A DNA stretch of 64,000 nt from Eledone cirrhosa (GCA_964016885.1 OZ024741.1:369272001-369336000); one strand, 5' to 3'. Shown: positions 2,532-57,100, counted from the stretch's first letter. Notes: generated by a model not told the origin, from the sequence alone. Numbers and translations: made by a program.

Positions 2532-2544
2532 AGGCTTGTCAGCA

Positions 2545-6385: not shown

Positions 6386-6396
6386 TTCGTTTGAAA

Positions 6397-6409
6397 AATC
6401 ACGACGCCA
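6397..6409 (-). promoter_or_regulatory. Primer-binding site of the Gypsy element
   Basis: Minus strand TGGCGTCGTGATT, 3 nt after the 5' LTR end; cognate tRNA not assigned. Confidence 0.75.
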
Positions 6410-6412
6410 AAA

Positions 6413-16300: not shown

Positions 16301-19300
16301 TCAGAGATTCTTTCCTGAGACATTCTAACCACATGTCTGTAGTTTCAGAGCTGTGATCTCACAATTCAGAGATTCTTTCCTGAGACATTTGAACTACATG
16401 TCCATAGTATCAGAGCTGTGATCTCTCAATTCAGAGATTCTTTCCTGAGACATTCTAACTCCATGTCCATAGTATCAGAGCTGTAGATTTCTCAATTCAG
16501 AGATTATTGCCTTAGACATTCTAACCACATATCCATAGAATCAGAGCTGTGATCTCTCAATTCAGAGATTCTTTCCTGAGATGTTCTAACCACATGTCTG
16601 TAGTTTCAGAGCTGTGATCTCTCAATTCAGAGATTCTTTCCTGCGACATTGTAACCACATGTCATAATATCAGAGCTGTGATCTCTCAATTCAGAGATTC
16701 TTTGCTGAGACATTCTAACCACATGTCTGTAGTATCAGAGCTGTGATCTCTCAATTCAAAGATTCTTTCCTGAGCCATTCTAACCACATATCATAAATTA
16801 TCAGAGCTATGATCTCTCAATTCAGAGATTCTTTCCTGAGACATTCTAATCCCATATCCATAGTATCAGAGCTGTGTTCTCTCAATCCAGTGATTCTTTC
16901 CCGAGCCATTCTAACCACATATCCATAGTATCAGAGCTGTGATCTCTCAATTCAGAGATTCTTTCCTGAGCCATTCTAACCACATATCCATAGTATCAGA
17001 GCTGTGATCTCTCAATTCAGAGATTCTTTCCTGAGACATTGTAACCACATGTCATAATACCAGAGCTAGGAACCCTCAATTCAGAGATTCTTTCCTTAGA
17101 CATTCTAACCCCATGTCCATTGTATCAGAGCTGTGATCTCTCAATCCAGTGATTCTTTCCTGAGGCATTCTAACCACATGTCATAACATCAGAGCTGTGA
17201 TCTCTCAATTCTTCAGAGATTCTTTCCAGAGACATTCTACTTACATGCCCATAGTATCGGAGCAGTGATTCTTTCCTGAGACATTCTAACCACATGTCTG
17301 TAGTTTCAGAGCTGTGATCTCACAATTAAGAGATTCTTTCCTGAGACATTCTAATTACATGTCCATAGTATCAGAGCTATGATTTCTCAATTCAGAGATT
17401 CTTTCCTGAGACATTTGAACTACATGTCCATGGAGCTGTGATCTCTCAATTCAGAGATTCTTCCCTGAGACATTCTAACCACATGTCATAATATCAGAGC
17501 TGTGATCTGTCAATTCAGAGATTATTGCCTGAGACATTCTAACCCCATGTCCATAGAATCACAGCTGTGATCTCTCAATCTAGTGATTCTTTCCTGAGAC
17601 ATTCTAACTCCATGTCCAAAGTATTGGAGCTGTGATCTCTCAGTTCAGAGATTCTTTCCTGAGACATTCTAACTACATGTCATAGCATCAGAGCTGTGAT
17701 CTCTATATTTAGAGATTCTTTCCTGAGATATTCTAACTACATGTCATAGTATCAGAGCAGTGATCTCTATATTTAGAGATTCTTTCCTGAGATATTCTAA
17801 CCACATGTCATAGTATCAAAGCTGTGATCTCTCAATTCAGAGATTCTTTTCTGAGACATTCTAACCACATGTCATACTATTAGAGCTGTGATCTCTCAAT
17901 TCAGAGATTCTTTCCTGAGACATTCTAGCCCCATATCAATAGTATCAGATCTGTATTCTCTCAATCCAATTATTCTTTCCTGAGCCATTCTAACCACATA
18001 TCCATAGTATCAGAGCTGTGATCTCTCAATTCAGACATTCTTTCCTGAGATATTCTAACAACATGTCTGTAGTATCAGAGCTGTGATCTCTCAATTCAGA
18101 GATTCTTTCCTGAGATATTCTAACAACATGTCTGTAGTGTCAGAGCTGTGATCTCTCAATTCAGAGATTCTTTCCTGAGATATTCTAACAACATGTCTGT
18201 AGTATCAGAGCTGTGATCTCTCAATTCAGAGATTCTTTCCTGAGACATTCTAACCACGTCATAATACCAGTGCTTTGATCTCTCAATTCAGAGATTCTTC
18301 CCTGAGATTTTCTAACCACATGTCTGTAGTATAAGAGCTGTGATCTCTAAATTCAGAGATTCTTTCCTGAGCCATTCTAACCACATATCCATAATATCAG
18401 AGCTGTGATCTCTCAATTCAAAGATTCTTTCCTGAGCCATTCTAACCACATATCCATATTATTAGAGCTCTGATCTCTCAATTCAGACATTCTTTCCTGA
18501 GACATTCTAACACCATATCCATATTATCAGAGCTGTGTTCTCTCAATCCAGTGATTCTTTCCCAAGCCATTCTAACCACATATCCATAGTATCAGAGCTG
18601 TGATCTCTCAATTCAGAGATTCTTTCCTGAGACATTGTAACCACATGTCATAATACCAGAGCTGGGAATCCTCAATTCAGAGATTCTTTCCTGAAATATT
18701 CTAACCACATGTCTGTAGTATCAGAGCTGTGATCTCACAATTCAGAGATTCTTTCCTGGGACATTGTAATTACATGTCCATAGTATCGGAGCTGTGATAT
18801 CTCAATTCAGAGATTCTTTCCTGAGACATTTGAACTACATGTCCATAGTATCAGAGCTGTGATCTCTCAATTCAGAGATTCGTTCCTTAGACATTCTAAC
18901 CCCATGTCCATTGTATCAGAGCTGTGATCTCTCAATCCAGTGACTCTTTCCGGAGGCATTCTAACCACATGTCATAACATCAGAGCTGTGATCTCTCAAT
19001 TCTTCAGAGATTCTTTCCTGAGACATTCTACTTACATGTCCATAGTATCGGAGCTGTGATCACTCAATTCAATGAATCTTTCCTGAGACATTCTAACCAC
19101 ATGTCTATAGTTCAGAGCTGTGATCTCACAATTCAGAGATTCTTTCCTGAGACATTCTAATTACATGTCCATAGTATCAGAGCTATGATTTCTCAATTCA
19201 GAGATTCTTTCCTGAGACATTTGAACTACATGTCCATGGAGATGTGATCTCTCAATTCAGAGATTCTTCCCTGAGACAATCTAACCACATGTCATAATAT

Positions 19301-19490
19301 CAGAGCTGTGATCTGTCAATTCAGAGATTATTGCCTGAGACATTCTAACTCCATGTCCATAGAATCACGGCTGTGATCTCTCAATCTAGTGATTCTTTCC
19401 TGAGACATTCTAACTCCATGTCCAAAATATTGGAGCTATGATCTCTCAGTTCAGAGATTCTTTCCCGAGACATTCTAACTACATGTTATA

Positions 19491-20221
19491 GTATCAGAGC
19501 TGTGATCTCTATATTTAGAGATTCTTTCCTGAGATATTCTACTTACATGTCCATACTATTAGAGCTGTGATCTCGGGGTCACCACTTTAGCAGTATTAGT
19601 TGTAGAGTAGTCGCCACTTTAGTAGGGTGGTAGAATCAGTGGTCGTTAGTTGCCAGTGTGGTAAGTGATAGTATCCTCGTTGGATTATCTTGTTGCCATA
19701 GACGTGAGGGAAGGTCCCTCGATCTATTTACCATCTATTTACAATATTCCTTTCGTCAGGTCGGCAATTCCAGCAGCATGGATTAAAGATGTCATTGAGA
19801 CACGAGTAACATAACAACGACTTCAACCGCAGTAATTAGAGATGAAATGTTTGTTTATTTATATGGTTGAAGTTACAGATAAAAAGTGGTTACAAAATGG
19901 AATGTGCCATTGCGCCGTTAAGCTGGCGAGGCTAGTGGTGCAGTATCTCACTGTTACATTATGCGTGTTGCTGGCTCGAAGTTTCTGGTACAAGCTAGAG
20001 ATTCTTCAAATCTTCGCGGGGAATTTCTTCCTCAGGGTGCGTAGGGATACATCCTCTTCTACTGGCGCTGATTGGCTGAACTGAGCCAAATCACGCACAG
20101 AGAATGTATGTGAGCCCGCGGAATGTAGGTCACTACAGTATCAGAGCTGTGATCTCTATATTTAGAGATTCTTTCCTGAGATATTCTACTTACATGTCCA
20201 TACTATTAGAGCTGTGATCTC
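19491..20221. repeat. 84-bp direct duplication flanking the solo LTR (19491-19574 and 20138-20221)
   Basis: The variant-specific string GTATCAGAGCTGTGATCTCTATATTTAG...CTACTTACATGTCCATACTATTAGAGCTGTGATCTC occurs on both sides; single copy at the empty site 54461-54544. Confidence 0.85.
19575..20137 (-). mobile_element. Truncated solo LTR inside the satellite, derived from the element at 42479-45166
   Basis: Near-identical to 42479-43040 and 44605-45166, with the same left and right satellite junctions; begins TGTAGTGACC on the minus strand. Confidence 0.93.
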
Positions 20222-23200
20222 TCAATTCAGAGATTCTTTCCTGAGACATTCTAACCCCATATCCATAGTATCAAATCTGTGTTCTCTCAATCCAGTGATT
20301 CTTTCCCGAGCCATTCTAACCACATATCCATAGTATCAGAGCTGTGATCTCTCAATTCAGACATTCTTTCCTGAGAGATTCTAACCACATGTCATAATAC
20401 CAGAGCTGTGAACCCTCAATTCAGAGATTCTTTCCTGAAATATTCTAACCACAGTTTCAGAGCTGTGATCTCACTATTCAGAGATTCTTTCCTGAGATAT
20501 TCTAACATCATGTCTGTAGTATCAGAGCTGTGATCTCTCAATTCAGAGATTCTTTCCTGAGATATTCTAACAACATGTCTGTATTATCAGAGCTGTGATC
20601 TCTCAATTCAGAGATTCTTTGCTGAGATATTCTAACAACATGTCTGTAGTATCAGAGCTGTGATCTCTCAATTCAGAGATTCTTTCCTGGGACATTTTAA
20701 CCACGTCATAATACCAGTGCTTTGATCTCTCAATTCAGAGATTCTTTGTTGAGATTTTCTAACCACATGTCTGTAGTATCAGAGCTGTGATCTCTCAATT
20801 CAAAGATTCTTTCCTGAGCCATTCTAACCACATATCATAAATTATCAGAGCTGTGATCTCTCAATTCAGAGATTCTTTCCTGAGACATTCTAACCCCATA
20901 TCCATAGTATCAGAGCTGTGTTCTCTCAATCCAGTGATTATTTCCCAAGTCATTCTAACCACATGTCATAATACCAGAGCTAGGAACCCTCAATTCAGAG
21001 ATTCTTTCCTTAGACATTCTAACACCATGTCCATTGTATCAGAGCTGTGATCTCTCAATCCAGTGATTCTTTCCTGAGGCATTCTAACCACATGTCATAA
21101 CATCAGAGCTGTGATCTCTCAATTCTTCAGAGATTCTTTCCTGAGACATTCTACTTACATGTCCATAGTATTGGAGCTGTGATCACTCAATTCAGTGATT
21201 CTTTCCTGAGACAATCTAACCACATGTCTGTAGTTTCAGAGCTGTGATCTCACGATTCATAGATTCGTTCCTGAGACATTCTAATTACATATCCATAGTA
21301 TCAGAACTGTGATTTCTCAATTCAGAGATTCTTTCCTGAGACATTTGAACTACATGTCCATGGAGCTGTGATCTCTCAATTCAGAGATTCTTTCCTGAGC
21401 CATTCTAACCACATATCCATAGTATCAGAGCTGTGATCTCTCAATTCAGTGATTCTTTCCTGAGACATTCTAACCACATGTCTGTAGTTTCAGAACTGTG
21501 ATCTCACAATTCAGAGATTCTTTCCTGAGACATTCTAACCACATGTCTGTAGTTTCAGAGCTGTGACCTCACAATTCAGAGATTCTTTCCTGAGACATTT
21601 GAACTACATGTCCATAGTATCAGAGCTGTGATCTCTCAATTCAGAGATTCTTTCCTGAGACATTCTAACCACATATCCATAGTATCAGAGCTGTGATCTC
21701 TCAATTCAGAGATTCTTTCCTGAGACGTTCTAACCACATGTCTGTAGTTTCAGAGCTGTGATCTCTCAATTCAGAGAATCTTTCCTGCGACATTGTAACC
21801 ACATGTCATAATATCAGAGCTGTGATCTCTCAATTCAGAGATTCATTGCTGAGACATTCTAAACCCATGTCCATAGTATCGGAGCTGTGATCTCTCAATT
21901 CAGAGATTCTTTCCTGAGCCATTCTAACCACATGTCATAATATCAGAGCTGTGATCTCTCAATTCAGAGATTCTTTCCTGAGACATTCTAACCACATATC
22001 CATAGTATCAGAGCTGTGATCTCTCAATTCAGAGATTCTTTCCTGAGCCATTCTAACCACATATCCATAGTATCAGAGCTGTGATCTCTCAATTCAGAGA
22101 TTCTTTCCTGAGACATTGTAACCACATGTCATAATACCAGAGCTAGGAACTCTCAATTCAGAGATTCTTTCCTTAGACATTCTAACCCCATGTCCATTGT
22201 ATCAGAGCTGTGATCTCTTAATCCAGTGATTCTTTCCTGAGGCATTCTAACCACATGTCATAACATCAGAGCTGTGATCTCTCAATTCTTCAGAGATTCT
22301 TTCCTGAGACATTCTACTTACATGCCCATATTATCGGAGCTGTGATCACTCAAATCAGTGATTCTTTCCTGAGACATTCTAACCACATGTCTGTAGTTTC
22401 AGAGCTGTGATCTCACAATTCAGAGATTCTTTCCTGAGACATTCTAATTACATGTCCATAGTATCAGAGCTATGATTTCTCAATTCAGAGATTCTTTCCT
22501 GAGACATTTGAACTACATGTCCATGGAGCTGTGATCTCTCAATTCAGAGATTCTTCCCTGAGACATTCTAATCACATGTCATAATATCAGAGCTGTGATC
22601 TGTCAATTCAGAGATTATTGCCTGAGACATTCTAATCCCATGTCCATAGAATCACAGCTGTGATCTCTCAATCTAGTGATTCTTTCCTGAGACATTCTAA
22701 ATCCATGTCCAAAGTATTGGAGCTGTGATCTCTCAGTTCAGAGATTCTTTCCTGAGACATTCTAACTACATGTCATAGTATCAGAGCTGTGATCTCTATA
22801 TTTAGAGATTCTTTCCTGAGATATTCTAACTACATGTCACAGTATCAGAGCCGTGATCTCTATATTTAGAGATTCTTTCCTGAGATATTCTAACCACATG
22901 TCATAGTATCAAAGCTGTGATCTCTCAATTCAGAGATTCTTTCCTGAGACATTGTAACCCCATATCCATAGTATCAGAGCTGCGTTCTCTCAATCCAGTG
23001 ATTCTTTCCCGAGCCATTCTAACCACATATCCATAGTATCAGGGCTGTGATCTCTCAATTCAGACATTCTTTCCTGAGACATTCTAACCACATGTCTGTA
23101 GTATCAGAGCTGTGAACCGTCAATTCAGAGATTCTTTCCTGAAATATTCTAACCACATGTCTGTAGTATCAGAGCTGTGATCTCACAATTCAGGGATTCT

Positions 23201-26200
23201 TTCCTGAGATATTCTAACAACATGTCTGTAGTATCAGAGCTGTGATCTCTAAATTCAGAGATTCTTTCCTGAGCCATTCTAACCACATATCCATAGTATC
23301 AGAGCTGTGATCTCTCAATTCAGAGATTCTTTCCTGAGACATTCTAACCACATGTCATAATATCAGTGCTGTGATCTCTCAATTCATAGATTCTTTCCTG
23401 AGACATTCTAACCAGATGTCATAATATCAGAGCTGTGATCTCTCAATTCATAGATTCTTTACTGATACATTCTAACCACATGTCTGTAGTTTCAGAACTG
23501 TGATCTCACAATTCAGAGATTCTTTCCTGAGACATTCTAACCACATGTCTGTAGTTTCAGAGCCGTGATCTCACAATTCAGAGATTCTTTCCTGAGACAT
23601 TTGAACTTATTGTCCATAGTATCAGAGCTGTGATCTCACAATTCAGAGATTCTTTCCTGAGACATTCTAACTCCATGTCCATAGTATCAGAGCTGTGATT
23701 TCTCAATTCAGAGATTAATGCCTGAGACATTCTAACCACATATCCATAGTATCAGAGCTGTGATCTCTCAATTCAGAGATTCTTTCCTGAGACGTTCTAA
23801 CGAAATGTCTGTAGTTTCAGAGCTGTGATCTCTCAATTCAGAGATTCTTTCCTGCGACATTGTAACCACATGTCATAATATCAGAGCTGTGATCTCTCAA
23901 TTCAGAGATTCTTTGCTGAGACATTCTAACCACATGGCTGTAGTATCAGAGCTGTGATCTCTCAATTCAAAGATTCTTTCCTGAGCCATTCTAACCACAT
24001 ATCCATAGTATCAGAGCTGTGATCTCTCAATTCAGAGATTCTTTCCTGAGACATTCTAACCCAATATCCATAGTATCAGAGCTGTGTTCTCTCAATCCAG
24101 TGATTCTTCACCGAGCCATTCTAACCACATATCCATAGTATCAGAGCTGTGATCTCTCAATTCAGAGATTCTTTCCTGAGACATTCTAACCACATGTCTG
24201 TAGTTTCAGAGCTGTCATCTCACAATTCAGAGATTCTTTCCTGAGACATTCTAATTACATATCCATAGTATCACAACTGTGATTTCTCAATTCAGAGATT
24301 CTTTCCTGAGACATTCTAACCACATGTCTGTAGTTTCAGAGCTGTGATCTCACAATTCAGAGATTCTTTCCTGAGACATTCTAATTACATATCCATAGTA
24401 TCAGAACTGTGATTTCTCAATTCAGAGATTCTTTCCTGAGACATTTGAACTACATGACCATGGAGCTGTGATCTCTCAATTCAGAGATTCTTTCCTGAGC
24501 CATTCTAACCACATATCCATAGTATCAGAGCTGTGATCTCTCAATTCAATGATTCTTTCCTGAGACATTGTAACCACACGTCATAATATCAGAGCTGTGA
24601 TCTCTCAATTCAGAGATTCTTTCCTGAGACATTCTAACCACATGTCTGTAGTTTCAGAGCTGTGATCTCTCAATTCAGAGATTCTTTCCTGAGACATTCT
24701 AACTCCATGTCCATAGTATCAGAGCTGTGATTTCTCAATTCAGAGATTATTGCCTTGGACATTCTAACCACATATCCATAGTATCAGAGCTGTGATCTCT
24801 CAATTCAGAGATTCTTTGCTGAGACATTCTAACCACATGGCTGTAGTATCAGAGCTGTGATCTCTCAATTCAAAGATTCTTTCCTGAGCCATTCTAACCA
24901 CATATCCATAGTATCAGAGCTGTGATTTCTCAATTCAGAAATTATTGCCTTGGACATTCTAACCACATATCCATAGTATCAGAGCTGTGATCTCTCAATT
25001 CAGAGATTATTTCCTGAGACGTTCTAACCACATGTCTGTAGTTTCAGAGCTGTGATCTCTCAATTCAGAGATTTTTTCCTGCGACATTGTAACCACATGT
25101 CATAATATCAGAGCTGTGATCTCTCAATTCAGAGATTCTTTGCTGAGACATTCTAACCACATATCATAAATTATCAGAGCTGTGATCTCTCAATTCAGAG
25201 ATTCTTTCCTGAGACATTCTAATCCCATATCCATAGTATCAGAGCTGTGTTCTCTCAATCCAGTGATTCTTTCCCGAGCCATTCTAACCACATATCCATA
25301 GTATCAGAGCTGTGATCTCTCAATTCAGAGATTCTTTCCTGAGACATTGTAACCACATGTCATAATACCAGAGCTAGGAACCCTCAATTCAGAGATTCTT
25401 TCCTTAGACATTCTAACGCCATGTCCATTGTATCAGAGCTGTGATCTCTCAATCCAGTGATTCTTTCCTGAGGCATTCTAACCAGATGTCATAACATCAG
25501 AGCTGTGATATCTCAATTCTTCAGAGATTCTTTCCTGAGACATTCTACTTACATGCCCATAGTATCGGAGCTGTGATCACTCAATTCAGTGATTCTTTCC
25601 TGAGACATTCTAACCACATGTCTGTAGTTTCAGAGCTGTGATCTCACAATTCAGAGATTCTTTCCTGAGACATTCTAATTACATGTCCATAGTATCAGAG
25701 CTATGATTTCTCAATTCAGAGATTCTTTCCTGAGACATTTGAACTACATGTCCATGGAGCTGTGATCTCTCAATTCAGAGATTCTTCCCTGAGACATTCT
25801 AACCACATGTCATAATATCAGAGCTGTGATCTCTATATTTAGAGATTCTTTCCTGAGATATTCTAACTACATGTCACAGTATCAGAGCTGTGATCTCTAT
25901 ATTTAGAGATTCTTTCCTGAGACATTCTAACCTCATATCCATTGTATCAGAGCTGCGTTCTCTCAATCCAGTGATTCTTTCCCGAGCCATTCTAACCACA
26001 TATCCATAGTATCAGGGCTGTGATCTCTCAATTCAGACATTCTTTCCTAAGACATTCTAACCACATGTCTGTAGTATCAGAGCTGTGAACCCTCAATTCA
26101 GAGATTCTTTCCTGAAATATTCTAACCACATGTCTGTAGTATCAGAGCTGTGATCTCACAATTCAGAGATTCTTTCCTGAGATATTCTAACAACATGTCT

Positions 26201-38200: not shown

Positions 38201-41200
38201 TAACGACATGTCTGTAGTTTCAGAGCTGTGATCTCTCAATTCAGAGATTCTTTCCTGCGACATTGTAACCACATGTCATAATATCAGAGCTGTGATCTCT
38301 CAATTCAGAGATTCTTTACTGAGACATTCTAACCACATGTCTGTAGTATCAGAGCTGTGATCTCTCAATTCAAAGATTCTTTCCTGAGCCATTCTAACCA
38401 CATATCCATAGTATCAGAGCTGTGTTCTGTCAATCCAGTGATTCTTTACCGAGCCATTCTAACCACATATCCATAGTATCAGAGCTGTGATCTCTCAATT
38501 CAGAGATTCTTTCCTGAGACATTGTAACCACATGTCATAATACCAGAGCTGTGATCTCACAATTCAGAGATTCTTTCATGAGACATTGTAATTACATGTC
38601 CATAGTATCCAAGCTGTGATATCTCAATTCAGAGATTCTTTCCTGAGACATTTGAAATACATGTCCATAGTATCAGAGCTGTGATCTCTCAATTCAGAGA
38701 TTCGTTCCTTAGACATTCTAACCCCATGTCCATTGTATCAGAGCTGTGATCTCTCAATCCAGTGATTCTTTTCTGAGGCATTCTAACCACATGTCATAAC
38801 ATCAGAGCTGTGATCTCTCAATTCTTCAGAGCTTCTTTCCTGAGACATTCTACTTACATGTCCATAGTATTGGAGCTGTGATCACTCAATTCAGTGATTC
38901 TTTCCTGAGACATTCTAACCACATGTCTGTAGTTTCAGAGCTGTGATCTCACAATTCAGAGATTCTTTCCTGAGACATTCTAATTACATATACATAGTAT
39001 CAGAACTGTGATTTCTTAATTCAGAGATTCTTTCCTGAGACATTCTAACCACATGTCTGTAGTTTCAGAGCTGTGATCTCACAATTCAGAGATTCTTTCC
39101 TGAGACATTTGAACTACATGGCCATGGAGCTGTGATCTCTCAATTCAGAGATTCTTTCCTGAGCCATTCTAACCACATATCCATAGTATCAGAGCTGTGA
39201 TCTCTCAATTCAGTGATTCTATCCTGAGACATAGTAACCACACGTCATAATATCAGAGCTGTGATCTCTCAATTCAGAGATTCTTTCCTGAGACATTCTA
39301 ACCACAAGTCTGTAGTTTCAGAACTGTGATCTCACAATTCAGAGATTCTTTCCTGAGACATTCTAACCACATGTCTGTAGTTTCAGAGCTGTGATCTCAC
39401 AATTCAGAGATTCTTTCCTGAGACATTTGAACTACATGTCCATAGTATCAGAGCTGTGATCTCTCAATTCAGAGATTCTTTCCTGAGATATTCTAACTCC
39501 ATGTCCATAATATCAGAGCTGTGATTTCTCAATTCAGAGATTATTGCCTTAGACATTCTAACCACATATCCATAGTATCAGAACTGTGATCTCTCAATTC
39601 AGAGATTCTTTCCTGCGACATTGTAACCACATGTCATAGTATCAGAGCTGTGTTCTCTCAATCCAGTGATTCTTTCCCGAGCCATTCTAACCACATATCC
39701 ATAGTATCAGAGCTGTGATCTCTCAATTCAGAGATTCTTTCCTGAGCCATTCTAACCACATATCCATAGTATCAGAGCTGTGATCTCTCAATTCAGAGAT
39801 TCTTTCCTGAGACATTGTAACCACATGTCATAATACCAGAGCTAGGAACCCTCAATTCAGAGATTCTTTCCTTAGACATTTTAACCCCATGTCCATTGTA
39901 TCAGAGCTGTGATCTCTCAATCCAGTGATTCTTTCCTGAGGCATTCTAACCCCATGTCCATTGTATCAGAGCTGTGATCTCTCAATCCAGTGATTCTTTC
40001 CTGAGGCATTCTAAACACATGTCATAACATCAGAGCTGTGATCTCTCAATTCTTCAGAGATTCTTTCCTGAGACATTCTACTTACATGCCCATAGTATCG
40101 GAGCAGTGATTCTTTCCTGAGACATTCTAACCACATGTCTGTAGTTTCAGAGCTGTGATCTCACAATTAAGAGATTCTTTCCTGAGACATTCTAATTACA
40201 TGTCCATAGTATCAGAGCTATGATTTCTCAATTCAGAGATTCTTTCCTGAGACATTTGAACTACATGTCCATGGAGCTGTGATCTCTCAATTCAGAGATT
40301 CTTCCCTGAGACATTCTAACCACATGTCATAATATCAGAGCTGTGATCTGTCAATTCAGAGATTATTGCCTGAGACATTCTAACCCCATGTCCATAGAAT
40401 GACAGCTGTGATCTCTCAATCTAGTGATTCTTTCCTGAGACATTCTAACTCCATGTCCAAAGTATTGGAGCTGTGATCTCTCAGTTCAGAGATTCTTTCC
40501 TGAGACATTCTAACTACATGTCATAGCATCAGAGCTGTGATCTCTATATTTAGAGATTCTTTCCTGAGATATTCTAACTACATGTCATAGTATCAGAGCA
40601 GTGATCTCTATATTTAGAGATTCTTTCCTGAGATATTCTAACCACATGTCATAGTATCAAAGCTGTGATCTCTCAATTCAGAGATTCTTTTCTGAGACAT
40701 TCTAACCACATGTCATACTATTAGAGCTGTGATCTCTCAATTCAGAGATTCTTTCCTGAGACATTCTAACCCCATATCAATAGTATCAGATCTGTATTCT
40801 CTCAATCCAATTATTCTTTCCTGAGCCATTCTAACCACATATCCATAGTATCAGAGCTGTGATCTCTCAATTCAGACATTCTTTCCTGAGATATTCTAAC
40901 AACATGTCTGTAGTATCAGAGCTGTGATCTCTCAATTCAGAGATTCTTTCCTGAGCTATTCTAACAACATGTCTGTAGTGTCAGAGCTGTGATCTCTCAA
41001 TTCAGAGATTCTTTCCTGAGATATTCTAACAACATGTCTGTAGTGTCAGAGCTGTGATCTCTCAATTCAGAGATTCTTTCCTGAGATATTCTAACAACAT
41101 GTCTGTAGTATCAGAGTTGTGATCTCTCAATTCAGAGATTCTTTCCTGAGACATTCTAACCACGTCATAATACCAGTGCTTTGATCTCTCAATTCAGAGA

Positions 41201-42478
41201 TTCTTCCCTGAGATTTTCTAACCACATGTCTAGTATCAGAGCTCTGATCTCTAAATTCAGAGATTCTTTCCTGAGCCATTCTAACCACATATCCATAGTA
41301 TCAGAGCTGTGATCTCTCAATTCAAAGATTCTTTCCTGAGCCATTCTAACCACATATCCATATTATCAGAGCTCTGATCTCTCAATTCAGACATTCTTTC
41401 CTGAGACTTTCTAACACCATATCCATATTATCAGAGCTGTGTTCTCTCAATCCAGTGATTCTTTCCCAAGCCATTCTAACCACATATCCATAGTATCAGA
41501 GCTGTGATCTCTCAATTCAAAGATTCTTTCCTGAGCCATTCTAACCACATATCCATAGTATCAGAGCTGTGATCTCTCAATTCAGAGATTCTTTCCTGAG
41601 ACATTGTAACCACATGTCATAATACCAGAGCTGGGAATCCTCAATTCAGAGATTCTTTCCTGAAATATTCTAACCACATGTCTGTAGTATCAGAGCTGTG
41701 ATCTCACAATTCAGAGATTCTTTCCTGGGACATTGTAATTACATGTCCATAGTATCGGAGCTGTGATATCTCAATTCAGAGATTCTTTCCTGAGACATTT
41801 GAACTACATGTCCATAGTATCAGAGCTGTGATCTCTCAATTCAGAGATTCGTTCCTTAGACATTCTAACCCCATGTCCATTGTATCAGAGCTGTGATCTC
41901 TCAATCCAGTGACTCTTTCCGGAGGCATTCTAACCACATGTCATAACATCAGAGCTGTGATCTCTCAATTCTTCAGAGATTCTTTCCTGAGACATTCTAA
42001 CCACATGTCTATAGTTCAGAGCTGTGATCTCACAATTCAGAGATTCTTTCCTGAGACATTCTAATTACATGTCCATAGTATCAGAGCTATGATTTCTCAA
42101 TTCAGAGATTCTTTCCTGAGACATTTGAACTACATGTCCATGGAGATGTGATCTCTCAATTCAGAGATTCTTCCCTGAGACATTCTAACCACATGTCATA
42201 ATATCAGAGCTGTGATCTGTCAATTCAGAGATTATTGCCTGAGACATTCTAACTCCATGTCCATAGAATCACGGCTGTGATCTCTCAATCTAGTGATTCT
42301 TTCCTGAGACATTCTAACTCCATGTCCAAAATATTGGAGCTGTGATCTCTCAGTTCAGAGATTCTTTCCCGAGACATTCTAACTACATGTCATAGTATCA
42401 GAGCTGTGATCTCTATATTTAGAGATTCTTTCCTGAGATATTCTACTTACATGTCCATACTATTAGAGCTGTGATCTC

Positions 42479-43040
42479 GGGGTCACCACTTTAGCAGTAT
42501 TAGTTGTAGAGTAGTCGCCACTTTAGTAGGGTGGTAGAATCAGTGGTCGTTAGTTGCCAGTGTGGTAAGTGATAGTATCCTCGTTGGATTATCTTGTTGA
42601 CATAGACGTGAGGGAAGGTCCCTCGATCTATTTACCATCTATTCACAATATTCCTTTCCTCAGGTCGCCAATTCCAGCAGCATGGATTAAAGATGTTATT
42701 GAGACACGAGTAACATAACAACGACTTCAACCGCAGTAATTAGAGATGAAATGTTTGTTTATTTATATGGTTGAAGTTACAGATACAAAGAGGTTACAAA
42801 AATGGAATGTGCCATTGGCGTTAAGCCGGCGAGGCTAGTGGTGCAATATCTCACTGTTACATTATGCGTGTTGCTGGCTCGAAGTTTCTGGTACAAGCTA
42901 GTGATTCTTCAAATCTTCGCGGGGAATTTCTTCCTCAGGGTGCGTAGGGATACATCCTCTTCTACTGGCGCTGATTGGCTGAACTGAGCCAAATCACGCA
43001 CAGAGAATGTATGTGAGCCCGCGGAATGTAGGTCACTACA
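42479..43040 (-). repeat. 3' LTR, missing ~410 bp of its U5 end
   Basis: Starts TGTAGTGACC (minus strand) after the PPT; homology to the 5' LTR stops at GGTCACCA (42481-42488). Confidence 0.88.
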
Positions 43041-43052
43041 TCACCTCCAACC
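43041..43052 (-). promoter_or_regulatory. Polypurine tract
   Basis: Minus strand GGTTGGAGGTGA directly before TGTAGT of the 3' LTR. Confidence 0.7.
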
Positions 43053-44177
43053 AGATTTTCAGCCGAAAATCGATAACGAAGAAACCAAGGACCCACATAT
43101 TATTAAATCAGCAAGAACAAATGCTGAAAGAGCACATCAGTGAAAAAATAATTGAGCAGAAGGTTGCATGCAAGAACAAAAAATGAGGCGCTACGGGCCG
43201 TGTTGAGCCGCTGTGTCAAATGACCAGTTGTTTTGTTGTTTATACGTGACCGCCAAAGGTCTAACAAAAAACGGATAAAGTCTGACATGGGCGAGGTTGC
43301 TGTTCTTGCATTAAATGTTAATGGTAAGCGTTGTACCAGTAGCTGTGAACGAAGCTATTATGGTAGTTTATCAGTGCTGGCCACCAGATGTATTGTCGAA
43401 TGTGCTGTGGAGCCAGGAAAAAATGGCTGGTTGCTTTGTAAAGAACAAAAGGCAAGTTTAATCTGTAGATGGGTTGCAGTGTAAATTCCATAATTCGGGC
43501 GAATCCACAGAAGTGGCCGAAATGCTAACAAGTCTAGTTCAATTTGTTGCTTTCCCAGCGAGTCGGGCAAAAACAACAAGACGGATGGCCGTCATGGACG
43601 ATCAGTGTGCAACGAGATGCGAAGCTGTTTGAGTTCAGCTGCAATGTATTCTCGTGTTGCGGTGCCTGTTTGAATCCAGTGGATTAAGCTCTGTGAGCTG
43701 CTAGCATGTGACAGCATCTCAACCAGGTGAAAAGGGACTCGCAGAATATTACGTTTGAAGAACATATACCAAGAACAACATGTTGGTGTGTGATAAAAAA
43801 AATGTGTGCATATGCAGGCATGTAAAACAGCAAAGAATGTGAATGAACAAAAACCATGAGCAAGCAAATAGCAAAAGAGCACAAAACAAGTAAATGCATT
43901 CTACAAAGAAATATGTGAATGTAACAAACTGATAATTCAAAGTCAATCTAGGGGAGCAGAGAAATTGCTCAATAAGTTCAAAGTTTTTCAAAGTCAAATA
44001 GTTCACACATCACCAGTGTACAGACACTAGTTCTGTCCGAAAACTGAAAAAGAATTTTGTTAATGCCATTAGGGGTTAGATGTATGGTGTTTTTGTGAGA
44101 TTTCGTGGCCATTTTCCCGTCCCGCCACACGGTTGTGTTGCTTATTGTTAAAGCAAAGTCAAAGAATCTTCTGTAGA

Positions 44178-44190
44178 GTAGGAGTCACCA
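44178..44190 (-). promoter_or_regulatory. Primer-binding site, tRNA-Trp-like
   Basis: Minus strand TGGTGACTCCTAC versus TGGTGACCCCGAC, the complement of the metazoan tRNA-Trp 3' end (11/13 match). Confidence 0.75.
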
Positions 44191-44192
44191 AA

Positions 44193-45166
44193 TATGGCAG
44201 TCGCGTCAGACGCCATAATGGTGAGAAAACTACTGTCCCAATTTCTCGCGTCCCTGTGGTAACGAGACAGAAGGTATGGTAGTTGCGTTGGTAAAGTTAC
44301 AAGCCGTTTCGAAATTTCCGATGTGTGGTGGTTGGCGTTGGTAAGGTTATGAAGCTGCCACTCACTGTTCCCTGTATTGGTCAGTGGTTAAACAATGCTG
44401 TCGCTGCTGCTGTCATTGTTGTTGTCAAGCGTAGCCATGACATGTCGGTAGCAATCTTGAAATTTTTTCGTGGCGAAACAGTTTTTGAAATACTGCTAAT
44501 TTTTCAAAAATCTTAAGAGGAATATTCTGGATTTTTGCAAGTTGCGACGTGGCAATAAAAGTTAAACTGAATGAATAAGAAGGGCTGCGTGATATTCTTA
44601 CGTTGGTCACCACTTTAGCAGTATTGGTTATAGATGTTATCGTCACTTTAGCAGGGTGGTAGAATCAGTGGTCGTTAGTTGCCAGTGTGGTAAGTGATAG
44701 TATCCTCGTTGGATTATCTTGTTGCCATAGACGTGAGAGAAGGTCCCTCGATCTATTTACCATCTATTTACAATATTCCTTTCGTCAGGTCGGCAATTCC
44801 AGCAGCATGGATTAAAGATGTCATTGAGACACGAGTAACATAACAACGACTTCAACCGCAGTAATTAGAGATGAAATGTTTGTTTATTTATATGGTTGAA
44901 GTTACAGATAAAAAGTGGTTACAAAATGGAATGTGCCATTGCGCCGTTAAGCTGGCGAGGCTAGTGGTGCAATATCTCACTGTTACATTATGCGTGTTGC
45001 TGGCTCGAAGTTTCTGGTACAAGCTAGTGATTCTTCAAATCTTCGCGGGGAATTTCTTCCTCAGGGTGCGTAGGGATACATCCTCTTCTACTGGCGCTGA
45101 TTGGCTGAACTGAGCCAAATCACGCACAGAGAATGTATGTGAGCCCGCGGAATGTAGGTCACTACA
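44193..45166 (-). repeat. Complete 5' LTR (~970 bp)
   Basis: From TGTAGTGACC at 45166 to just before the PBS (inner end uncertain by about 2 nt); AATAAA on the minus strand at ~44883-44888. Confidence 0.8.
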
Positions 45167-48100
45167 GTATCAGAGCTGTGATCTCTATATTTAGAGATTC
45201 TTTCCTGAGATATTCTACTTACATGTCCATACTATTAGAGCTGTGATCTCTCAATTCAGAGATTCTTTCCTGAGACATTCTAACCCCATATCCATAGTAT
45301 CAAATCTGTGTTCTCTCAATCCAGTGATTCTTTCCCGAGCCATTCTAACCACATATCCATAGTATCAGAGCTGTGATCTCTCAATTCAGACATTCTTTCC
45401 TGAGAGATTCTAACCACATGTCATAATACCAGAGCTGTGAACCCTCAATTCAGAGATTCTTTCCTGAAATATTCTAACCACAGTTTCAGAGCTGTGATCT
45501 CACAATTCAGAGATTCTTTCCTGAGATATTCTAACATCATGTCTGTAGTATCAGAGCTGTGATCTCTCAATTCAGAGATTCTTTCCTGAGATATTCTAAC
45601 AACATGTCTGTATTATCAGAGCTGTGATCTCTCAATTCAGAGATTCTTTGTTGAGATATTCTAACAACATGTCTGTAGTATCAGAGCTGTGATCTCTCAA
45701 TTCAGAGATTCTTTCCTGAGACATTTTAACCACGTCATAATACCAGTGCTTTGATCTCTCAATTCAGAGATTCTTTGTTGAGATTTTCTAACCACATGTC
45801 TGTAGTATCAGAGCTGTGATCTCTCAATTCAAAGATTCTTTCCTGAGCCATTCTAACCACATATCATAAATTATCAGAGCTGTGATCTCTCAATTCAGAG
45901 ATTCTTTCCTGAGACATTCTAACCCCATATCCATAGTATCAGAGCTGTGTTCTCTCAATCCAGTGATTATTTCCCGAGTCATTCTAACCACATGTCATAA
46001 TACCAGAGCTAGGAACCCTCAATTCAGAGATTCTTTCCTTAGACATTCTAACCCCATGTCCATTGTATCAGAGCTGTGATCTCTCAATCCAGTGATTCTT
46101 TCCTGAGGCATTCTAACCACATGTCATAACATCAGAGCTGTGATCTCTCAATTCTTCAGAGATTCTTTCCTGAGACATTCTACTTACATGTCCATAGTAT
46201 TGGAGCTGTGATCACTCAATTCAGTGATTCTTTCCTGAGACAATCTAACCACATGTCTGTAGTTTCAGAGCTGTGATCTCACAATTGAGAGATTCGTTCC
46301 TGAGACATTCTAATTACATATCCATAGTATCAGAACTGTGATTTCTCAATTCAGAGATTCTTTCCTGAGACATTTGAACTACATGTCCATGGAGCTGTGA
46401 TCTCTCAATTCAGAGTTTCTTTCCTGAGCCATTCTAACCACATATCCATAGTATCAGAGCTGTGATCTCTCAATTCAGTGATTCTTTCCTGAGACATTGT
46501 AACCACACGTCATAATATCAGAGCTGTGATCTCTCAATTCAGAGATTCTTTCCTGAGCCATTCTAACCACATATCCATAGTATCAGAGCTGTGATCTCTC
46601 AATTCAGTGATTCTTTCCTGAGACATTGTAACCACACGTCATAATATCAGAGCTGTGATCTCTCAATTCAGAGATTCTTTCCTGAGACATTCTAACTCCA
46701 TGTCCATAGTATCAGAGCTGTGATTTCTCAATTCAGAGATTATTGCCTTAGACATTCTAACCACATATCCATAGTATCAGAGCTGTGATCTCTCAATTCA
46801 GAGATTCTTTCCTGAGATGTTCTAACCACATGTCTGTAGTTTCAGAGCTGTGATCTCTCAATTCAGAGAATCTTTCCTGCGACATTGTAACCACATGTCA
46901 TAATATCAGAGCTGTGATCTCTCAATTCAGAGATTCATTGCTGAGACATTCTAAACCCATGTCCATAGTATCGGAGCTGTGATCTCTCAATTCAGAGATT
47001 CTTTCCTGAGCCATTCTAACCACATGTCATAATATCAGAGCTGTGATCTCTCAATTCAGAGATTCTTTCCTGAGACATTCTAACCACATATCCATAGTAT
47101 CAGAGCTGTGATCTCTCAATTCAGAGATTCTTTCCTGAGCCATTCTAACCACATATCCATAGTATCAGAGCTGTGATCTCCCAATTCAGAGATTCTTTCC
47201 TGAGACATTGTAACCACATGTCATAATACCAGAGCTAGGAACCCTCAATTCAGAGATTCTTTCCTTAGACATTCTAACCCCATGTCCATTGTATCAGAGC
47301 TGTGATCTCTTAATCCAGTGATTCTTTCCTGAGGCATTCTAACCACATGTCATAACATCAGAGCTGTGATCTCTCAATTCTTCAGAGATTCTTTCCTGAG
47401 ACATTCTACTTACATGCCCATAGTATCGGAGCTGTGATCACTCAAATCAGTGATTCTTTCCTGAGACATTCTAACCAAATGTCTGTAGTTTCAGAGCTGT
47501 GATCTCACAATTCAGAGATTCTTTCCTGAGACATTCTAATTACATGTCCATAGTATCAGAGCTATGATTTCTCAATTCAGAGATTCTTTCCTGAGACATT
47601 TGAACTACATGTCCATGGAGCTGTGATCTCTCAATTCAGAGATTCTTCCCTGAGACATTCTAATCACATGTCATAATATCAGAGCTGTGATCTGTCAATT
47701 CAGAGATTATTGCCTGAGACATTCTAATCCCATGTCCATAGAATCACAGCTGTGATCTCTCAATCTAGTGATTCTTTCCTGAGACATTCTAAATCCATGT
47801 CCAAAGTATTGGAGCTGTGATCTCTCAGTTCAGAGATTCTTTCCTGAGACATTCTCACTACATGTCATAATATCAGAGCTGTGATCTCTATATTTAGAGA
47901 TTCTTTCCTGAGATATTCTAACTACATGTCACAGTATCAGAGCTGTGATCTCTATATTTAGAGATTCTTTCCTGAGATATTCTAACCACATGTCATAGTA
48001 TCAAAGCTGTGATCTCTCAATTCAGAGATTCTTTCCTGAGACATTCTAACCCCATATCCATAGTATCAGAGCTGCGTTCTCTCAATCCAGTGATTCTTTC

Positions 48101-51100
48101 CCGAGCCATTCTAACCACATATCAATAGTAACAGGGCTGTGATCTCTCAATTCAGAAATTCTTTCCTGAGACATTCTAACCACATGTCTGTAGTATCAGA
48201 GCTGTGAACCCTCAATTCAGAGATTCTTTCCTGAAATATTCTAACCACATGTCTGTAGTATCAGAGCTGTGATCTCACAATTCAGAGATTCTTTCCTGAG
48301 CCATTCTAACCACATATCCATAGTATCAGAGCTGTGATCTCTCAATTCAGAGATTCTTTCCTGAGACATTCTAACCACATGTCATAATATCAGAGCTGTG
48401 ATCTCTCAATTCATAGATTCTTTCCTGAGACATTCTAACCACATGTCATAATATCAGAGCTGTGATCTCTCAATTCATAGATTCTTTACTGATACATTCT
48501 AACCACATGTCTGTAGTTTCAGAACTGTGATCTCACAATTCAGAGATTCTTTCCTGAGACATTCTAACCACATGTCTGTAGTTTCAGAGCCTTGATCTCA
48601 CAATTCAGAGATTCTTTCCTGAGACATTTGAATTTATTGTCCATAGTATCAGAGCTGTGATCTCACAATTCAGAGATTCTTTCCTGAGACATTCTAACCC
48701 CATGTCCATAGTATCAGAGCTGTGATTTCTCAATTCAGAGATTATTGCCTGAGACATTCTAACCACATATCCATAGTATCAGAGCTGTGATCTCTCAATT
48801 TAGAGATTCTTTCCTGAGACGTTCAAGCGACATGTCAGTAGTTTCAGAGCTGTGATCTCTCAATTCAGAGATTCTTTCCTGCGACATTGTAACCACATGT
48901 CATAATATCAGAGCTGTGATCTCTCAATTCAGAGATTCTTTGCTGAGAAATTCTAACCGCATGTCTGTAGTTTCAGAACTGTGATCTCACAATTCAGAGA
49001 TTCTTTCCTGAGACATTCTAACCACATATCCATATTATCAGAGCTGTGATCTCTCAATTCAGACATTCTTTCCTGAGACATTCTAACACCATATCCATAG
49101 TATCAGAGCTGTGTTCTCTCAATCCAGTGATTCTTTCCCGAGCCATTCTAACCACATATCCATAGTATCAGAGCTGTGATCTCTCAATTCAGAGATTCTT
49201 TCCTGAGCCGTTCTAACCACATATCCATAGTATCAGAGCTGTGATCTCTCAATTCAGAGATTCTTTCCTGAGACATCGTAACCACATGTCATAATACCAG
49301 AGCTGGGAATCCTCAATTCAGAGATTCTTTCTGAAATATTCTAACCACATGTCTGTAGTATCAGAGCTGTGATCTGACAATTCAGAGATTCTTTCCTGAG
49401 ACATTGTAATTACATGTCCATAGTATCGGAGCTGTGATATCTCAATTCAGAGATTCTTTCCTGAGACATTTGAACTACATGTCCATAGTATCAGAGCTGT
49501 GATCTCTCAATTCAGAGATTCGTTCCTGAGACATTGTAACCACATGTCATAATACCAGAGCTGTGATCTCTCAATTCAGAGATTCGTTCCTTAGACATTC
49601 TAATCCCATGTCCTTTGTATCAGAGCTGTGATCTCTCAATCCAGTGATTCTTTCCAGAGGCATTCTAACCAAATGTCATAACATCAGAGCTGTGATCTCT
49701 CAATTCTTCAGAGATTCTTTCCTGAGACATTCTACTTACATGTCCATAGTATCGGAGCTGTGATCACTCAATTCAGTGAATCTTTCCTGAGACATTCTAA
49801 CCACATATCCATATTATCAGAGCTGTGATCTCTCGATTCAGACATTCTTTCCTGAGACATTCTAACACCATATCCATAGTATCAGAGCTGTGTTCTCTCA
49901 ATCCAGTGATTCTTTCCCGAGCCATTCTAACCACATATCCATAGTATCAGAGCTGTGATCTCTCAATTCAGAGATTCTTTCCTGAGCCGTTCTAACCACA
50001 TATCCATAGTATCAGAGCTGTGATCTCTCAATTCAGAGATTCTTTCCTGAGACATCGTAACCACATGTCATAATACCAGAGCTGGGAATCCTCAATTCAG
50101 AGATTCTTTCTGAAATATTCTATCCACATGTCTGTAGTATCAGTGCTGTGATCTGACAATTCAGAGATTCTTTCCCGAGACATTGTAATTACATGTCCAT
50201 AGTATCGGAGCTGTGATATCTCAATTCAGAGATTCTTTCCTGAGACATTTGAACTACATGTCCATGGAGCTGTGATCTCTCAATTCAGAGATTCTTCGGT
50301 GAGACATTCTAACAACATGTCATAATATCAGAGCTGTGATCTGTCAATTGGGAGATTATTGCCAGAAACATTCTAACCCCATGTCAATAGAATCACGGCT
50401 GTGATCTCTCAATCTAGTGATTCTTTCGTGAGACGTTCTAACTCCATGTCCAAAGTATTGGAGCCGTGATCTCTCAGTTCAGAGATTCTTTCCTGAGACA
50501 TTCTAACTCCATGTCCAAAGTATTGGAGCTGTGATCTCTCAATTTAGAGATTCTTTCCTGAGACGTTCAAGCGACATGTCTGTAGTTTCAGAGCTGTGAT
50601 CTCTCAATTCAGAGATTCTTTCGTGAGACATTCTAACCACATGTCATAATATCAGAGCTGTGTTCTCTCAATTCATAGATTCTTTCCTGAGACTTTCTAA
50701 CCACATGTCATAATATCAGAGCTGTGATCTCACAATTCATAGATTCTTTCCTGAGACATTCTAACCACATGTCTGTAGTTTCAGAGCCGTGATCTCACAA
50801 TTCAGAGATTCTTTCCTGAGACATTTGAACTTATTGTCCATAGTATCAGAGCTGTGATCTCACAATTCAGAGATTCTTTCCTGAGACATTCTAACCCCAT
50901 GTCCATAGTATCAGAGCTGTGATTTCTCAATTCAGAGATTATTGCCTTAGACATTCTAACCACATATCCATAGTATCAGAGCTGTGATCTCTCAATTTAG
51001 AGATTCTTTCCTGAGACGTTCAAGCGACATGTCTGTAGTTTCAGAGCTGTGATCTCTCAATTCAGAGATTCTTTCCTGCGACATTGTAACCACATGTCAT

Positions 51101-54100: not shown

Positions 54101-57100
54101 ATTCAGAGATTCTTTCCTGAGACATTCTAATTACATGTCCATAGTATCAGAGCTATGATTTCTCAATTCAGAGATTCTTTCCTGAGACATTTGAACTACA
54201 TGTCCATGGAGCTGTGATCTCTCAATTCAGAGATTCTTCGGTGAGACATTCTAACCACATGTCATAATATCAGAGCTGTGATCTGTCAATTCAAAGATTA
54301 TTGCCAGAGACATTCTAACCCCATGTCCATAGAATCACGGCTGTGATCTCTCAATCTAGTGATTCTTTCCTGAGACGTTCTAACTCCATGTCGAAAGTAT
54401 TGGAGCTGTGATCTCTCAGTTCAGAGATTCTTTCCTGAGACATTCTAACTACATGTCATAGTATCAGAGCTGTGATCTCTATATTTAGAGATTCTTTCCT
54501 GAGATATTCTACTTACATGTCCATACTATTGGAGCTGTGATCTCTCAATTCAGAGATTCTTTCCTGAGACATTCTAACCCCATATCCATAGTATCAGAGC
54601 TGTGTTCTCTCAATCCAGTGATTCTTTCCCGAGCCATTCTAATCACATATCCATAGAATCAGAGCTGTGATCTCTCAATTCAGACATTCTTTCCTGAGAG
54701 ATTCTAACCACATGTCATAATACCAGAGCTGTGAACCCTCAATTCAGAGATTCTTTCCTGAAATATTCTAACCACATGTCTGTAGTTTCAGAGCTGTGAT
54801 CTCACAATTCAGAGATTCTTTCCTGAGATATTCTAACAACATGTCTGTAGTATCACAGCTGTGATCTCTCAATTCAGAGATTATTTGCTGAGATATTCTA
54901 ACAACATGACTGTAGTATCAGAGCTGTGATGTCTCAATTCAGAGATTCTTCCCTGAGACATTCTAACCACGTCATAATACCAGTGCTTTGATCTCTCAAT
55001 TCAGAGTTTCTTTCCTGAGCATTCTAACCACATATCCATAGTATCAGAGCTGTGATCTCTCAATTCAGAGATTCTTTCCTGAGACATTGTAACCACATGT
55101 CATAATACCAGAGCCGTGATCTCTCAATTCATAGATTCTTTCCTCAGACATTCTAACCACATGTGGTAGTATCAGAGCTGTGATCTCTCAATTCAGAGAT
55201 TCGTTCCTGAGACATTGTAACCACATGTCATAATATCAGAGCTGTGATCTCTCAATTCATTGATTCTTTCCTGAGAAATTCTAACCACATGTCATAATAT
55301 CAGAGCTGTGATCTCTCAATTCATAGATTCTTTCCTGAGACATTCTAACCACATGTCATAATATCAGAGCTGTGATCTCTCAATTCATAGATTCTTTCCT
55401 GAGACATTCTAACCACATGTCATAATACCAGTGCTTTGATCTCTCAACTCAGAGATTCTTTCCTGAGAAATTTTAACCCCATGTCCATAGTATCAGAGCT
55501 GTGTTCTCTCAATCCAGTTATTCTTTCCTGAGACATTCTAACCATATATCCATAGTATCAGAGCTGTGAACCCTCAATCCAGTGATTCTTTCCTGAGACA
55601 TTCTACTTACATGTCCATAGTATCGGAGCTGTGAACCCTCAATTCAGAGATTCTTTCCTGAGACATTTGAACTACATGTCCATAGTATCAGAGCTGTACC
55701 TCTCAATTCAGAGATTCTTTCCTTAGACATTCTAACCCCATGTCCATTGTATCAGAGCTGTGATCTCTCAATCCAGTGATTCTTTCCTGAGGCATTCTAA
55801 CCACATGTCATAACATCAGAGCTGTGATCTCTCAATTCTTCAGAGATTCGTTCCTGAGACATTCTACTTACATGTCCATAGTGTCGGAGCTGTGATCACT
55901 CAATTCAGTGATTCTTCCCTGAGACATTCTAACCACGTGTCTGTAGTTTCAAAGCTATCATCTCACAATTCAGAGCTTCTTTCCTGAGACATTCTAATTA
56001 CATGTCCATAGTATCAGAGCTGTGATTTCTCAATTCAGAGATTCTTTCCTGAGACATTGTAACCACATGTCATAATATCAGATCTGTGATCTCTCAATTC
56101 AGAGATTCTTTCTTGAGACATTGTAACCACATGTCATAATATCAGATCTGTGATCTCTCAATTCAGAGATTCTTTCCTGAGACATTCTAACCACATGTCC
56201 ATAGTATCAGAGCTGTGATCTCTAAATTCAGAGATTCTTTCCTGAGCCATTCTAACCACATATCCATAGTATCAGAGCTGTGATCTCTCAATCCAGTGAT
56301 TCTTTCCTGAAACATTGTAAACACATGTCATAATACCAGAGCTGTGATCTCTCAATTCAGAGATTCTTTCCTGAGATATTCTAACCACATGTCTGTAGTA
56401 TCACAGCTGTGATCTCTCAATTCAGAGATTATTGCCTGAGACATGCTAACCCCATGTCCATAGTATCGGAGCTGTGATCTCGCAATTCAGAGATTCTTTC
56501 CTGAGCCATTCTAACCACATATCCATAGTATCAGAGCTGTGATTTCTCAATTCAGAGATTCTTTCGTGAGACATTTGAACTACATGTCCATAGAGGTGTG
56601 ATCTGTCAATTCAGAGATTCTTTCCTGAGACATTTGAACTACATGTGCATAGAGCCGTGATCTCTCAATTCAGAGATTCCTCCCTGAGATTTTCTAACCA
56701 CATGTCTGTAGTATCAGAGCTGTGATCTCTAAATTCAGAGATTCTTTCCTGAGCCATTCTAACCACATGTCTGTAGTATCAGAGCTGTGATCTCTCAATT
56801 CAGAGATTCTTTCCTGACACAATCTAACCACGTCATAATACCAGTGCTTTGATCTATCAATTCAGAGATTCTTTCCTGAGACATTCTAACCACATATCTG
56901 TAGTATCAGAGCTGTGATCTCTCAATTCAGAGATTCTTTCCTGAGACATTCTAACCACATGTCTGTAGTATCAGAGCTGTGATCTCTCAATTCAGAGATT
57001 CTTTCCTGAGACATTCTAACCACATGTCTGTAGTATCAGAGCTGTGATCTCTCAATTCAGAGATTCTTTCCTGAGACAGTCTAACCACATGTCTGTAGTA

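Follow-up and report, generated by a model that had tools for sequence, protein, structure and literature searches.

Dating of LTR retrotransposons assumes that both LTRs were identical at insertion. In the general model of standard reverse transcription on two RNAs, both ends receive the same mosaic LTR (PMC6894440). For Onsen, pairwise recombination between family members is described as frequent, and R junctions were common among 32 sequenced insertions (PMC5668417). About half of the Tf1 cDNA is reported to keep a primer-site tail (PMC11042837), and one-ended integration of ASLV and HIV-1, in which one end is a poor integrase substrate, is described as producing a normal junction on one side together with an extended duplication of host sequence (PMC5041404). 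Here, we describe an LTR retrotransposon with discordant LTRs, a primer-site tail and a long target duplication at a single locus. We assign a probability of roughly 70% to the view that its two LTRs were born different, from two family members, whether these were joined at the RNA or at the DNA level.

The element has a length of 2.7 kb, reads on the minus strand and lies inside a satellite array of the 64,000-nt stretch of DNA that was analyzed (the window). It has the hallmarks of an LTR retrotransposon, i.e., direct terminal repeats starting with TG and a primer-binding site after the 5' LTR. The 5' LTR (44614-45166, minus strand) comprises 553 bp with TGT...AAA ends, and the 3' LTR (42490-43040, minus strand) comprises 551 bp. 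An earlier interpretation of the window, in the following called the sequence-only reading, had delimited the LTRs as 42481-43040 and 44605-45166; the repeat is real, but it extends past the LTR proper by a G plus 8 nt that belong to the primer-binding site. After the 5' LTR, a one-base spacer and the internal primer-binding site occupy positions 44605-44613 (site 44612-44605, minus strand). Agreement of this site with the tRNA-Trp site is limited to 8 nt, beyond which the two diverge. The internal region (43041-44604, minus strand) has a length of 1.56 kb and contains no long ORF and no detectable gag or pol remnant. A weak polypurine-tract-like 12-mer (43041-43052, minus strand, 9/12 purines) adjoins the 3' LTR.

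Coding remnants were searched for in the internal region in several ways, each of which would overlook a remnant disrupted by frameshifts. Pfam yielded no credible match in the six full frames, the single sub-threshold hit being an unrelated domain (E 0.0097), and no match in 12 sub-segments. One 77-aa ORF was not recovered in any of nine candidate longer proteins, and one of the three sense frames had no match among 1.84 billion representative proteins. By eye, a segment near 43480-43530 may resemble a gag N-terminus. Because no coding remnant was found, the element is likely to be non-autonomous. Comparison of 42300-45400 with Rfam gave no matches.

The CsRn1 clade is described as having a tRNA-Trp primer site, TGGTGA(G/C)CCCG(T/A), LTR termini TGT...AAA or TGT...ATA, a 4-bp target duplication, and a Gag with a CHCC motif (PMC2582038). 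The termini and the primer site of the element fit this description, while its 85-bp target duplication does not. Because the 4-bp duplication is absent and no reverse transcriptase was detected for placement, the element is classified only as putatively CsRn1-like Ty3/gypsy and is not filed as a clade member. The idea that AAA in place of CA at the LTR end represents a damaged integrase site was dropped, as TGT...AAA is normal for the clade according to the same description (PMC2582038).

The host sequence is a 65-bp satellite array at 7708-63883 (plus strand) with about 810 units on one strand, and both of its ends are inside the window. It has only two interruptions of at least 25 nt, 19575-20138 and 42479-45167. 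The array contains many kb-scale near-identical blocks with varied spacings as well as indels of whole monomers, and its CpG observed/expected ratio is 0.12, compared with 0.8-0.9 in the elements. A second element, a frameshifted gypsy element with RT-RNase H, rve (integrase) and zf-CCHC (zinc-knuckle) domains, is located at 2224-6713 on the minus strand. The best named match of its RT-RNase H, among the best 120 of 797 matches, is a trematode protein with 53% identity. To judge from these relatives, the host is an animal and likely an invertebrate. Its LTRs have 291 and 301 bp, and inspection by eye revealed no obvious target duplication. Its AATAAA follows TATAAAT at a distance of 22 nt, suggesting that R is very short. 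An approximately 80-bp repeat with three copies of 80% identity lies upstream of the gypsy element (1444-1703), and compound TA-rich microsatellite and minisatellite tracts are present at 441-895 and 1080-1272. The window contains no tRNA genes.

In a pairwise alignment of 42481-43040 with 44605-45166, 19 of the 563 columns differed, i.e., 15 substitutions and four one-base indels. Numbered along the minus strand with the TG end as the start, the differences are at positions 214, 222, 225, 241, 252, 257, 346, 375, 384, 399, 430, 443, 516, 525, 529, 530, 533, 538, and 542. The 213 bp from the TG end (44954-45166 = 42828-43040, minus strand) contain no difference, the first one beyond this tract being at 42827/44953. 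Outside the tract, the divergence is 5.4% (19/350), or 4.3% for substitutions alone (15/345), and the substitution divergence of the whole LTR, which naive dating would use, is 2.7%. The sequence-only reading had counted, on the plus strand, about 18 differences in the first ~350 bp, seven of them in the first 50 bp, and none in the last ~210 bp. The alignment bears this out with 19 columns, exactly seven differences at 42502-42527, and 213 bp without any. The same reading spoke of an identical U3 and an R/U5 with about 5% divergence; the figures agree with ours, but the labels U3 and R/U5 are interpretation and must be regarded as putative.

A clustering test was applied to this alignment. 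Under uniform scatter, the probability of a difference-free run of at least 213 anywhere is 0.0015 for 19 columns, 0.011 for the 15 substitutions, and 0.018 for 14 events, the latter obtained by scoring two complex spots each as a single event. The uniform null is weakened because the differences are themselves clumped (seven in 30 columns, P 0.028), and merging of differences within 5, 12 or 30 nt gave P values of 0.04, 0.20, and 0.71, respectively. The clean-run pattern is real, its statistical strength on its own is moderate, and it is non-significant with broad merging of clumps. Chance would have some room: ageing to a divergence of about 2.7-3.4% with clumped mutation, noticed post hoc, could leave such a tract, and the LTR pair of the neighboring gypsy element, which served as a control, also has a clean run of 102 (13 events in 304 columns, P 0.06). 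We nevertheless regard this explanation as improbable, given the run probabilities of 0.0015-0.018 and, independently of them, a probability of 0.07-0.14 for an unmutated target duplication under uniform ageing. The mutation spectrum was uninformative (nine transitions and six transversions in the LTR pair versus 11 and 12 in the flanks).

The LTR contains TCAGTT at position 54 and CCAAT at position 63, both within the identical tract, as well as TATAAA at 274 and AATAAA at 278. The latter two overlap (44883-44892, also 42758-42767, minus strand) and represent a candidate TATA box or poly(A) signal. If TATAAA were a TATA box, the start of transcription would be expected near position 303, with six of the 19 differences falling into U3, and an origin of the discordance at the RNA level would fail. 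If AATAAA is the poly(A) signal and the start lies upstream, such an origin holds, and all that is needed is a start no later than position 213. The switch need not coincide with the start site because strand transfer can occur inside R (PMC3061985), and the borders of LTR regions are said to need RNA data (PMC3601003). The sequence-only reading had placed the switch about 70 bp upstream of AATAAA, in good agreement with the 65 nt found between the first difference and the signal (44888-44883, minus strand). It had also considered a transcription start near 44955 plausible. Such a start received no motif support, as the sole TATA match overlaps AATAAA, and it is not required either. At or before LTR position 213, no start-site motif was detected except TCAGTT and CCAAT. 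RNA folding of 44480-44960 (minus strand) gave a z of -1.05, i.e., no signal.

The element is flanked by two identical copies of an 85-mer, one at the primer-site end (42394-42478, plus strand) and one at the TG end (45166-45250, plus strand), the first base of the latter being shared with the LTR. Only five of 659 in-register satellite positions lie within eight mismatches of the 85-mer, namely two at the full element, two at a solo LTR described below, and one at 54460. The four copies at the full element and the solo LTR are all identical. The fifth site (54460-54544, plus strand) is an empty paralogous site with one 85-mer copy, one mismatch, and both flanks matching, which remains similar for about 1 kb on the left and 250 bp on the right. 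Because this site has a single copy and matching flanks, the 85-mer is regarded as a target duplication. The empty site could be pre-insertion or could have been restored via recombination between the 85-bp copies, and it differs from the filled site at 30 of 1249 positions (2.4%). Ordinary slippage of monomers was rejected as the source of the repeat: a length of 85 does not result from a multiple of 65 with a short duplication added, and the two copies lie on either side of the element.

The two junctions are unequal, the TG end being clean and the other end carrying 11 extra bases. The 3' LTR is followed by a spacer base, TGGTGACCCC, and then GA, which is common to the target; together, this amounts to 12/12 of the tRNA-Trp motif, compared with 8/12 for the site after the 5' LTR. 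Spacer and retained primer-site copy occupy 42477-42489 (minus strand), with 10 nt inserted and 42478-42477 shared with the target. Apart from its copies behind the 3' LTR and the solo LTR, the 12-mer TGGTGACCCCGA was not found; it fits the tRNA-Trp site given for the CsRn1 clade (PMC2582038). The end of the tail falls inside the primer site, which is what a tRNA copy would give, and leader sequence is absent.

The LTRs also contain relics of this arrangement. A copy of an LTR end plus primer site is present inside each LTR (42663-42699 and 44788-44824, minus strand, LTR positions 342-378), and a second, shorter relic is present at 42514-42529 (minus strand, LTR positions 512-527). Compared with the first relic, the terminal 36 nt of the 5' repeat matched with a score of 39, which was reached in none of 1000 shuffles, whereas those of the 3' repeat gave no match (score 19, P 0.26). 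Judged by eye from the relic alignment, all five differences at LTR positions 529-542 are derived in the 3' LTR and likely stem from one event. The relics suggest that U5 may have grown via repeated duplication of the LTR end; an LTR minus the relics would have about 370 bp, near the 381 bp of the PwRn1 LTR.

Satellite blocks spanning 15507-23288 are a duplicate of 38544-48380 with 97.5-99.4% identity. Raw flank divergence is 56/5397 (1.0%), and 35/5219 (0.7%) after mismatches in 65-nt windows with at least four of them, which indicate replaced monomers, were dropped. The duplicate of the insertion site contains a solo LTR (19575-20137, minus strand) with the same retained primer site, and the solo locus with both 85-bp copies (19490-19574 and 20137-20221) covers 19490-20221 (plus strand). 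The solo LTR agrees with the 5' LTR at 11 of 12 informative columns at positions 214-443, the discordant site being 430, and with the 3' LTR at seven of seven at positions 516-542. By this allele pattern, it is a recombinant between both LTRs with an apparent crossover between positions 444 and 515. It has two private substitutions (19999, 19943). The duplicated block constitutes a dated before/after pair for the formation of a solo LTR. The pair also bears on the quality of the assembly, as a haplotype or paralogue switch inside one LTR might be feared in a 56-kb satellite with near-identical duplicated blocks. Such an artefact is highly improbable: the solo LTR carries the alleles of both LTRs in crossover order together with private changes in line with the flanks, and the junctions are base-exact across four copies.

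The solo LTR was also used as a clock. In the first 213 bp, it differs from the 5' LTR at two positions, compared with 1.4 expected from the flank divergence and 9.2 expected if this tract had been overwritten after the block duplication (P 0.0055). Of the 11 differences at positions 214-443, about 0.8 are expected to postdate the block duplication. The comparison shows that most LTR differences predate the 0.7% block duplication and that the first 213 bp of the 5' LTR were probably not overwritten afterwards.

The target duplication served as a second clock. For its 84 informative bases, the probability of remaining unmutated is 0.017-0.049 if the element is as old as the divergent LTR part and 0.32 at the age of the block duplication alone. 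Because the duplication is unmutated, we favor a probably young insertion in which the LTR difference would not mainly result from ageing, and for the same reason an origin from two sources is likely. Together, the identical tract and the target duplication show no change in 297 bp, which gives an age bound near 1%, although the tract was picked from the data. The empty site provides a weak bound: the 15 substitutions in 345 bp exceed its 2.4% (P 0.023) if it is a true outgroup. Its distance is close to the 2.7% of the whole LTR, which fits plain ageing and is a point in favor of chance.

These clocks bear most directly on an explanation by gene conversion. In this case, an older single-template insertion with about 4-5% LTR divergence would have been homogenized in its first 213 bp by conversion within the element, and LTR dating would then underestimate its age. 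Possible converted regions, mostly of 100-1000 bp, are reported for 25% of plant LTR pairs (PMC7251063), the contiguous identical tract falls within this range, and the recombinant solo LTR shows that this LTR pair recombines. Homogenization of U3 by later gene conversion had already been considered in the sequence-only reading. For the 5' LTR, conversion after the block duplication is disfavored by the value of 0.0055 given above; other routes, i.e., conversion from the 5' to the 3' LTR at any time or in either direction before the block duplication, leave no trace in the solo LTR. Against conversion stand the 85-bp duplication, which is unmutated (evidence of moderate strength) and not collinear with the tract, the excess of substitutions over the empty-site bound, again if this site is a true outgroup, and the primer-site tail and long duplication, both of which conversion leaves unexplained. 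We regard it as unlikely. The claim that LTR-LTR dating would overestimate the age of this insertion is likely to be correct, supported by the unmutated 85-bp duplication and the solo-LTR paralogue.

The sequence-only reading had attributed the strong-stop DNA to one family member and the body to a second, co-packaged one. An origin from two members is likely indeed, but the standard two-template route would yield identical LTRs. The 19 LTR differences, most of them seemingly not due to ageing, suggest that the element departs from a canonical first-transfer recombinant. Because standard reverse transcription on two templates gives identical LTRs (PMC6894440), read-through and a failed second transfer are needed in addition. 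The DNA itself shows how the differences are distributed, that there are two primer sites and an 85-bp duplication, and that an empty site and a recombinant solo LTR exist. From these observations, we infer four steps of a single aberrant reverse transcription on two co-packaged family RNAs. First, tRNA-Trp would prime RNA 1, and the minus strong-stop DNA would be transferred, at or inside R, to the 3' end of RNA 2. Second, U3 and the body of RNA 2 would be copied, and synthesis would run on through U5 and R of RNA 2, because RNA 2 would be unprimed, its primer site matching for only 8 nt. Third, the mismatched primer site would not support extension of the plus strong-stop DNA (U3-R1-U5_1 plus tRNA copy), which would stay at the 3' end, while the minus strand would acquire U3 by way of homology in R. 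The weakness of the internal primer site would be the reason both for the read-through and for a second transfer that spares the R/U5 of the acceptor. The outcome would be a 5' LTR of the structure U3-R2-U5_2 and a 3' LTR of the structure U3-R1-U5_1 followed by the primer site. Fourth, integrase would join the clean TG end, and host repair would join the primer-site tail 85 bp away using a microhomology of 2 nt. As a fifth step, it is strongly indicated that the satellite block later duplicated and that one copy collapsed to the recombinant solo LTR.

We give even odds to this aberrant reverse transcription as the source of discordance, tail, and duplication. In its favor, one event would account for three oddities. 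Against it, the microhomology of only 2 nt is expected by chance in about one of 16 cases, the target duplication might have arisen after the insertion or been homogenized, and the recombining LTR pair raises the prior for conversion. The read-through step draws in part on work reported for Ty1; no published example of read-through with such an outcome was found. It would be distinctly doubtful to go further and assume that the lineage repeatedly yields discordant LTRs, tRNA-copy tails, and long duplications because second strand transfer regularly fails at a weak primer site on a defective RNA, the two U5 relics representing earlier rounds.

The two sources could also have been joined at the DNA level, which we consider a tentative alternative. 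The cDNA or 1-LTR circle of a second member might have recombined with a resident solo LTR plus tail, a cDNA of such a member might have repaired the 3' LTR, or a template-switch dimer might have been cut at the middle primer site. Each would fit the same sequence: the LTRs would still be born different, dating would still overestimate the age, and the switch point need not match a transcription start. Joining of DNAs explains the retained primer site and dispenses with a start before position 214, and integration of a circle into a solo LTR gives the same allele pattern as excision from a full element. What counts against this alternative is that solo LTRs arise by excision far more often than circles integrate. 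Moreover, either another rare event would have had to hit the same site or the first 213 bp must have been common to both members beforehand, and the tail stops within the primer site like a tRNA copy, without leader sequence. A further point in its favor comes from Tf1, for which about 70% of the integrase-independent insertions mapped from the 3' LTR are reported to land on existing copies, in tandem or converted (PMC11042837).

If the proposed origin is true, the locus represents a natural fossil of an LTR pair that was born different, the same array providing as controls the empty site, the dated duplicate, and the recombinant solo LTR. The usual reading of such tracts, namely conversion in an element that is older than it looks, would be turned around. 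The three-part signature of discordant LTRs, primer-site tail, and long duplication is searchable in any long-read genome and would mark elements misdated by their LTRs. About a quarter of nested elements are reported to look older than their hosts (PMC7251063), and LTRs that were discordant from birth are one candidate contributor to this. A survey of open-access titles and abstracts did not recover the combination in a natural insertion.

The element shares with the CsRn1 clade, including PwRn1 and AgCR, the tRNA-Trp primer site, the TGT...AAA termini, and an animal host. It differs from the clade as described (PMC2582038) by its 85-bp target duplication, the lack of a detectable Gag (CHCC) or Pol, a length of only 2.7 kb, LTRs that measure about 550 bp and contain relics of LTR end plus primer site, and a primer site also after the 3' LTR. 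The Onsen/Copia78 recombinants of Arabidopsis (PMC5668417) and the general model (PMC6894440) have in common with our locus two parental members, a junction at or in R, and defective members that ride along; they differ in that the mosaic LTR of the model is the same at both ends, whereas here the LTRs differ. The closest published route is the proposed intermolecular second strand transfer of HIV-1, in which the ends of the provirus also draw on different co-packaged RNAs. As outlined there (PMC5651808), however, the U3/R breakpoint apparently arises only in the next cycle, an identical U3 is not predicted, and neither a tail nor a long duplication is involved.

In the one-ended integration of ASLV and HIV-1, too, a normal end is paired with an aberrant one, and a long stretch of host DNA is duplicated. 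Those events were obtained in culture with mutant ends, drugs, or mutant integrase, their duplications often span hundreds to thousands of bp, and LTR discordance is not among the features that this account reports (PMC5041404). Integrase-independent single-strand annealing of Tf1 resembles our locus in the primer-site tail at the cDNA's 3' end and in recombination with existing copies. In Tf1, the target supplies the homology to the primer site, either about 5 nt or an existing element (PMC11042837), whereas at our locus the TG end is undamaged, 10 nt were inserted, and no more than 2 nt are shared. A solo LTR may have been present at the insertion site beforehand in a Tf1-like manner, 2 nt being shared with the empty site. 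The component mechanisms are already known from retroviruses and yeast elements, and here they would have come together at one locus.
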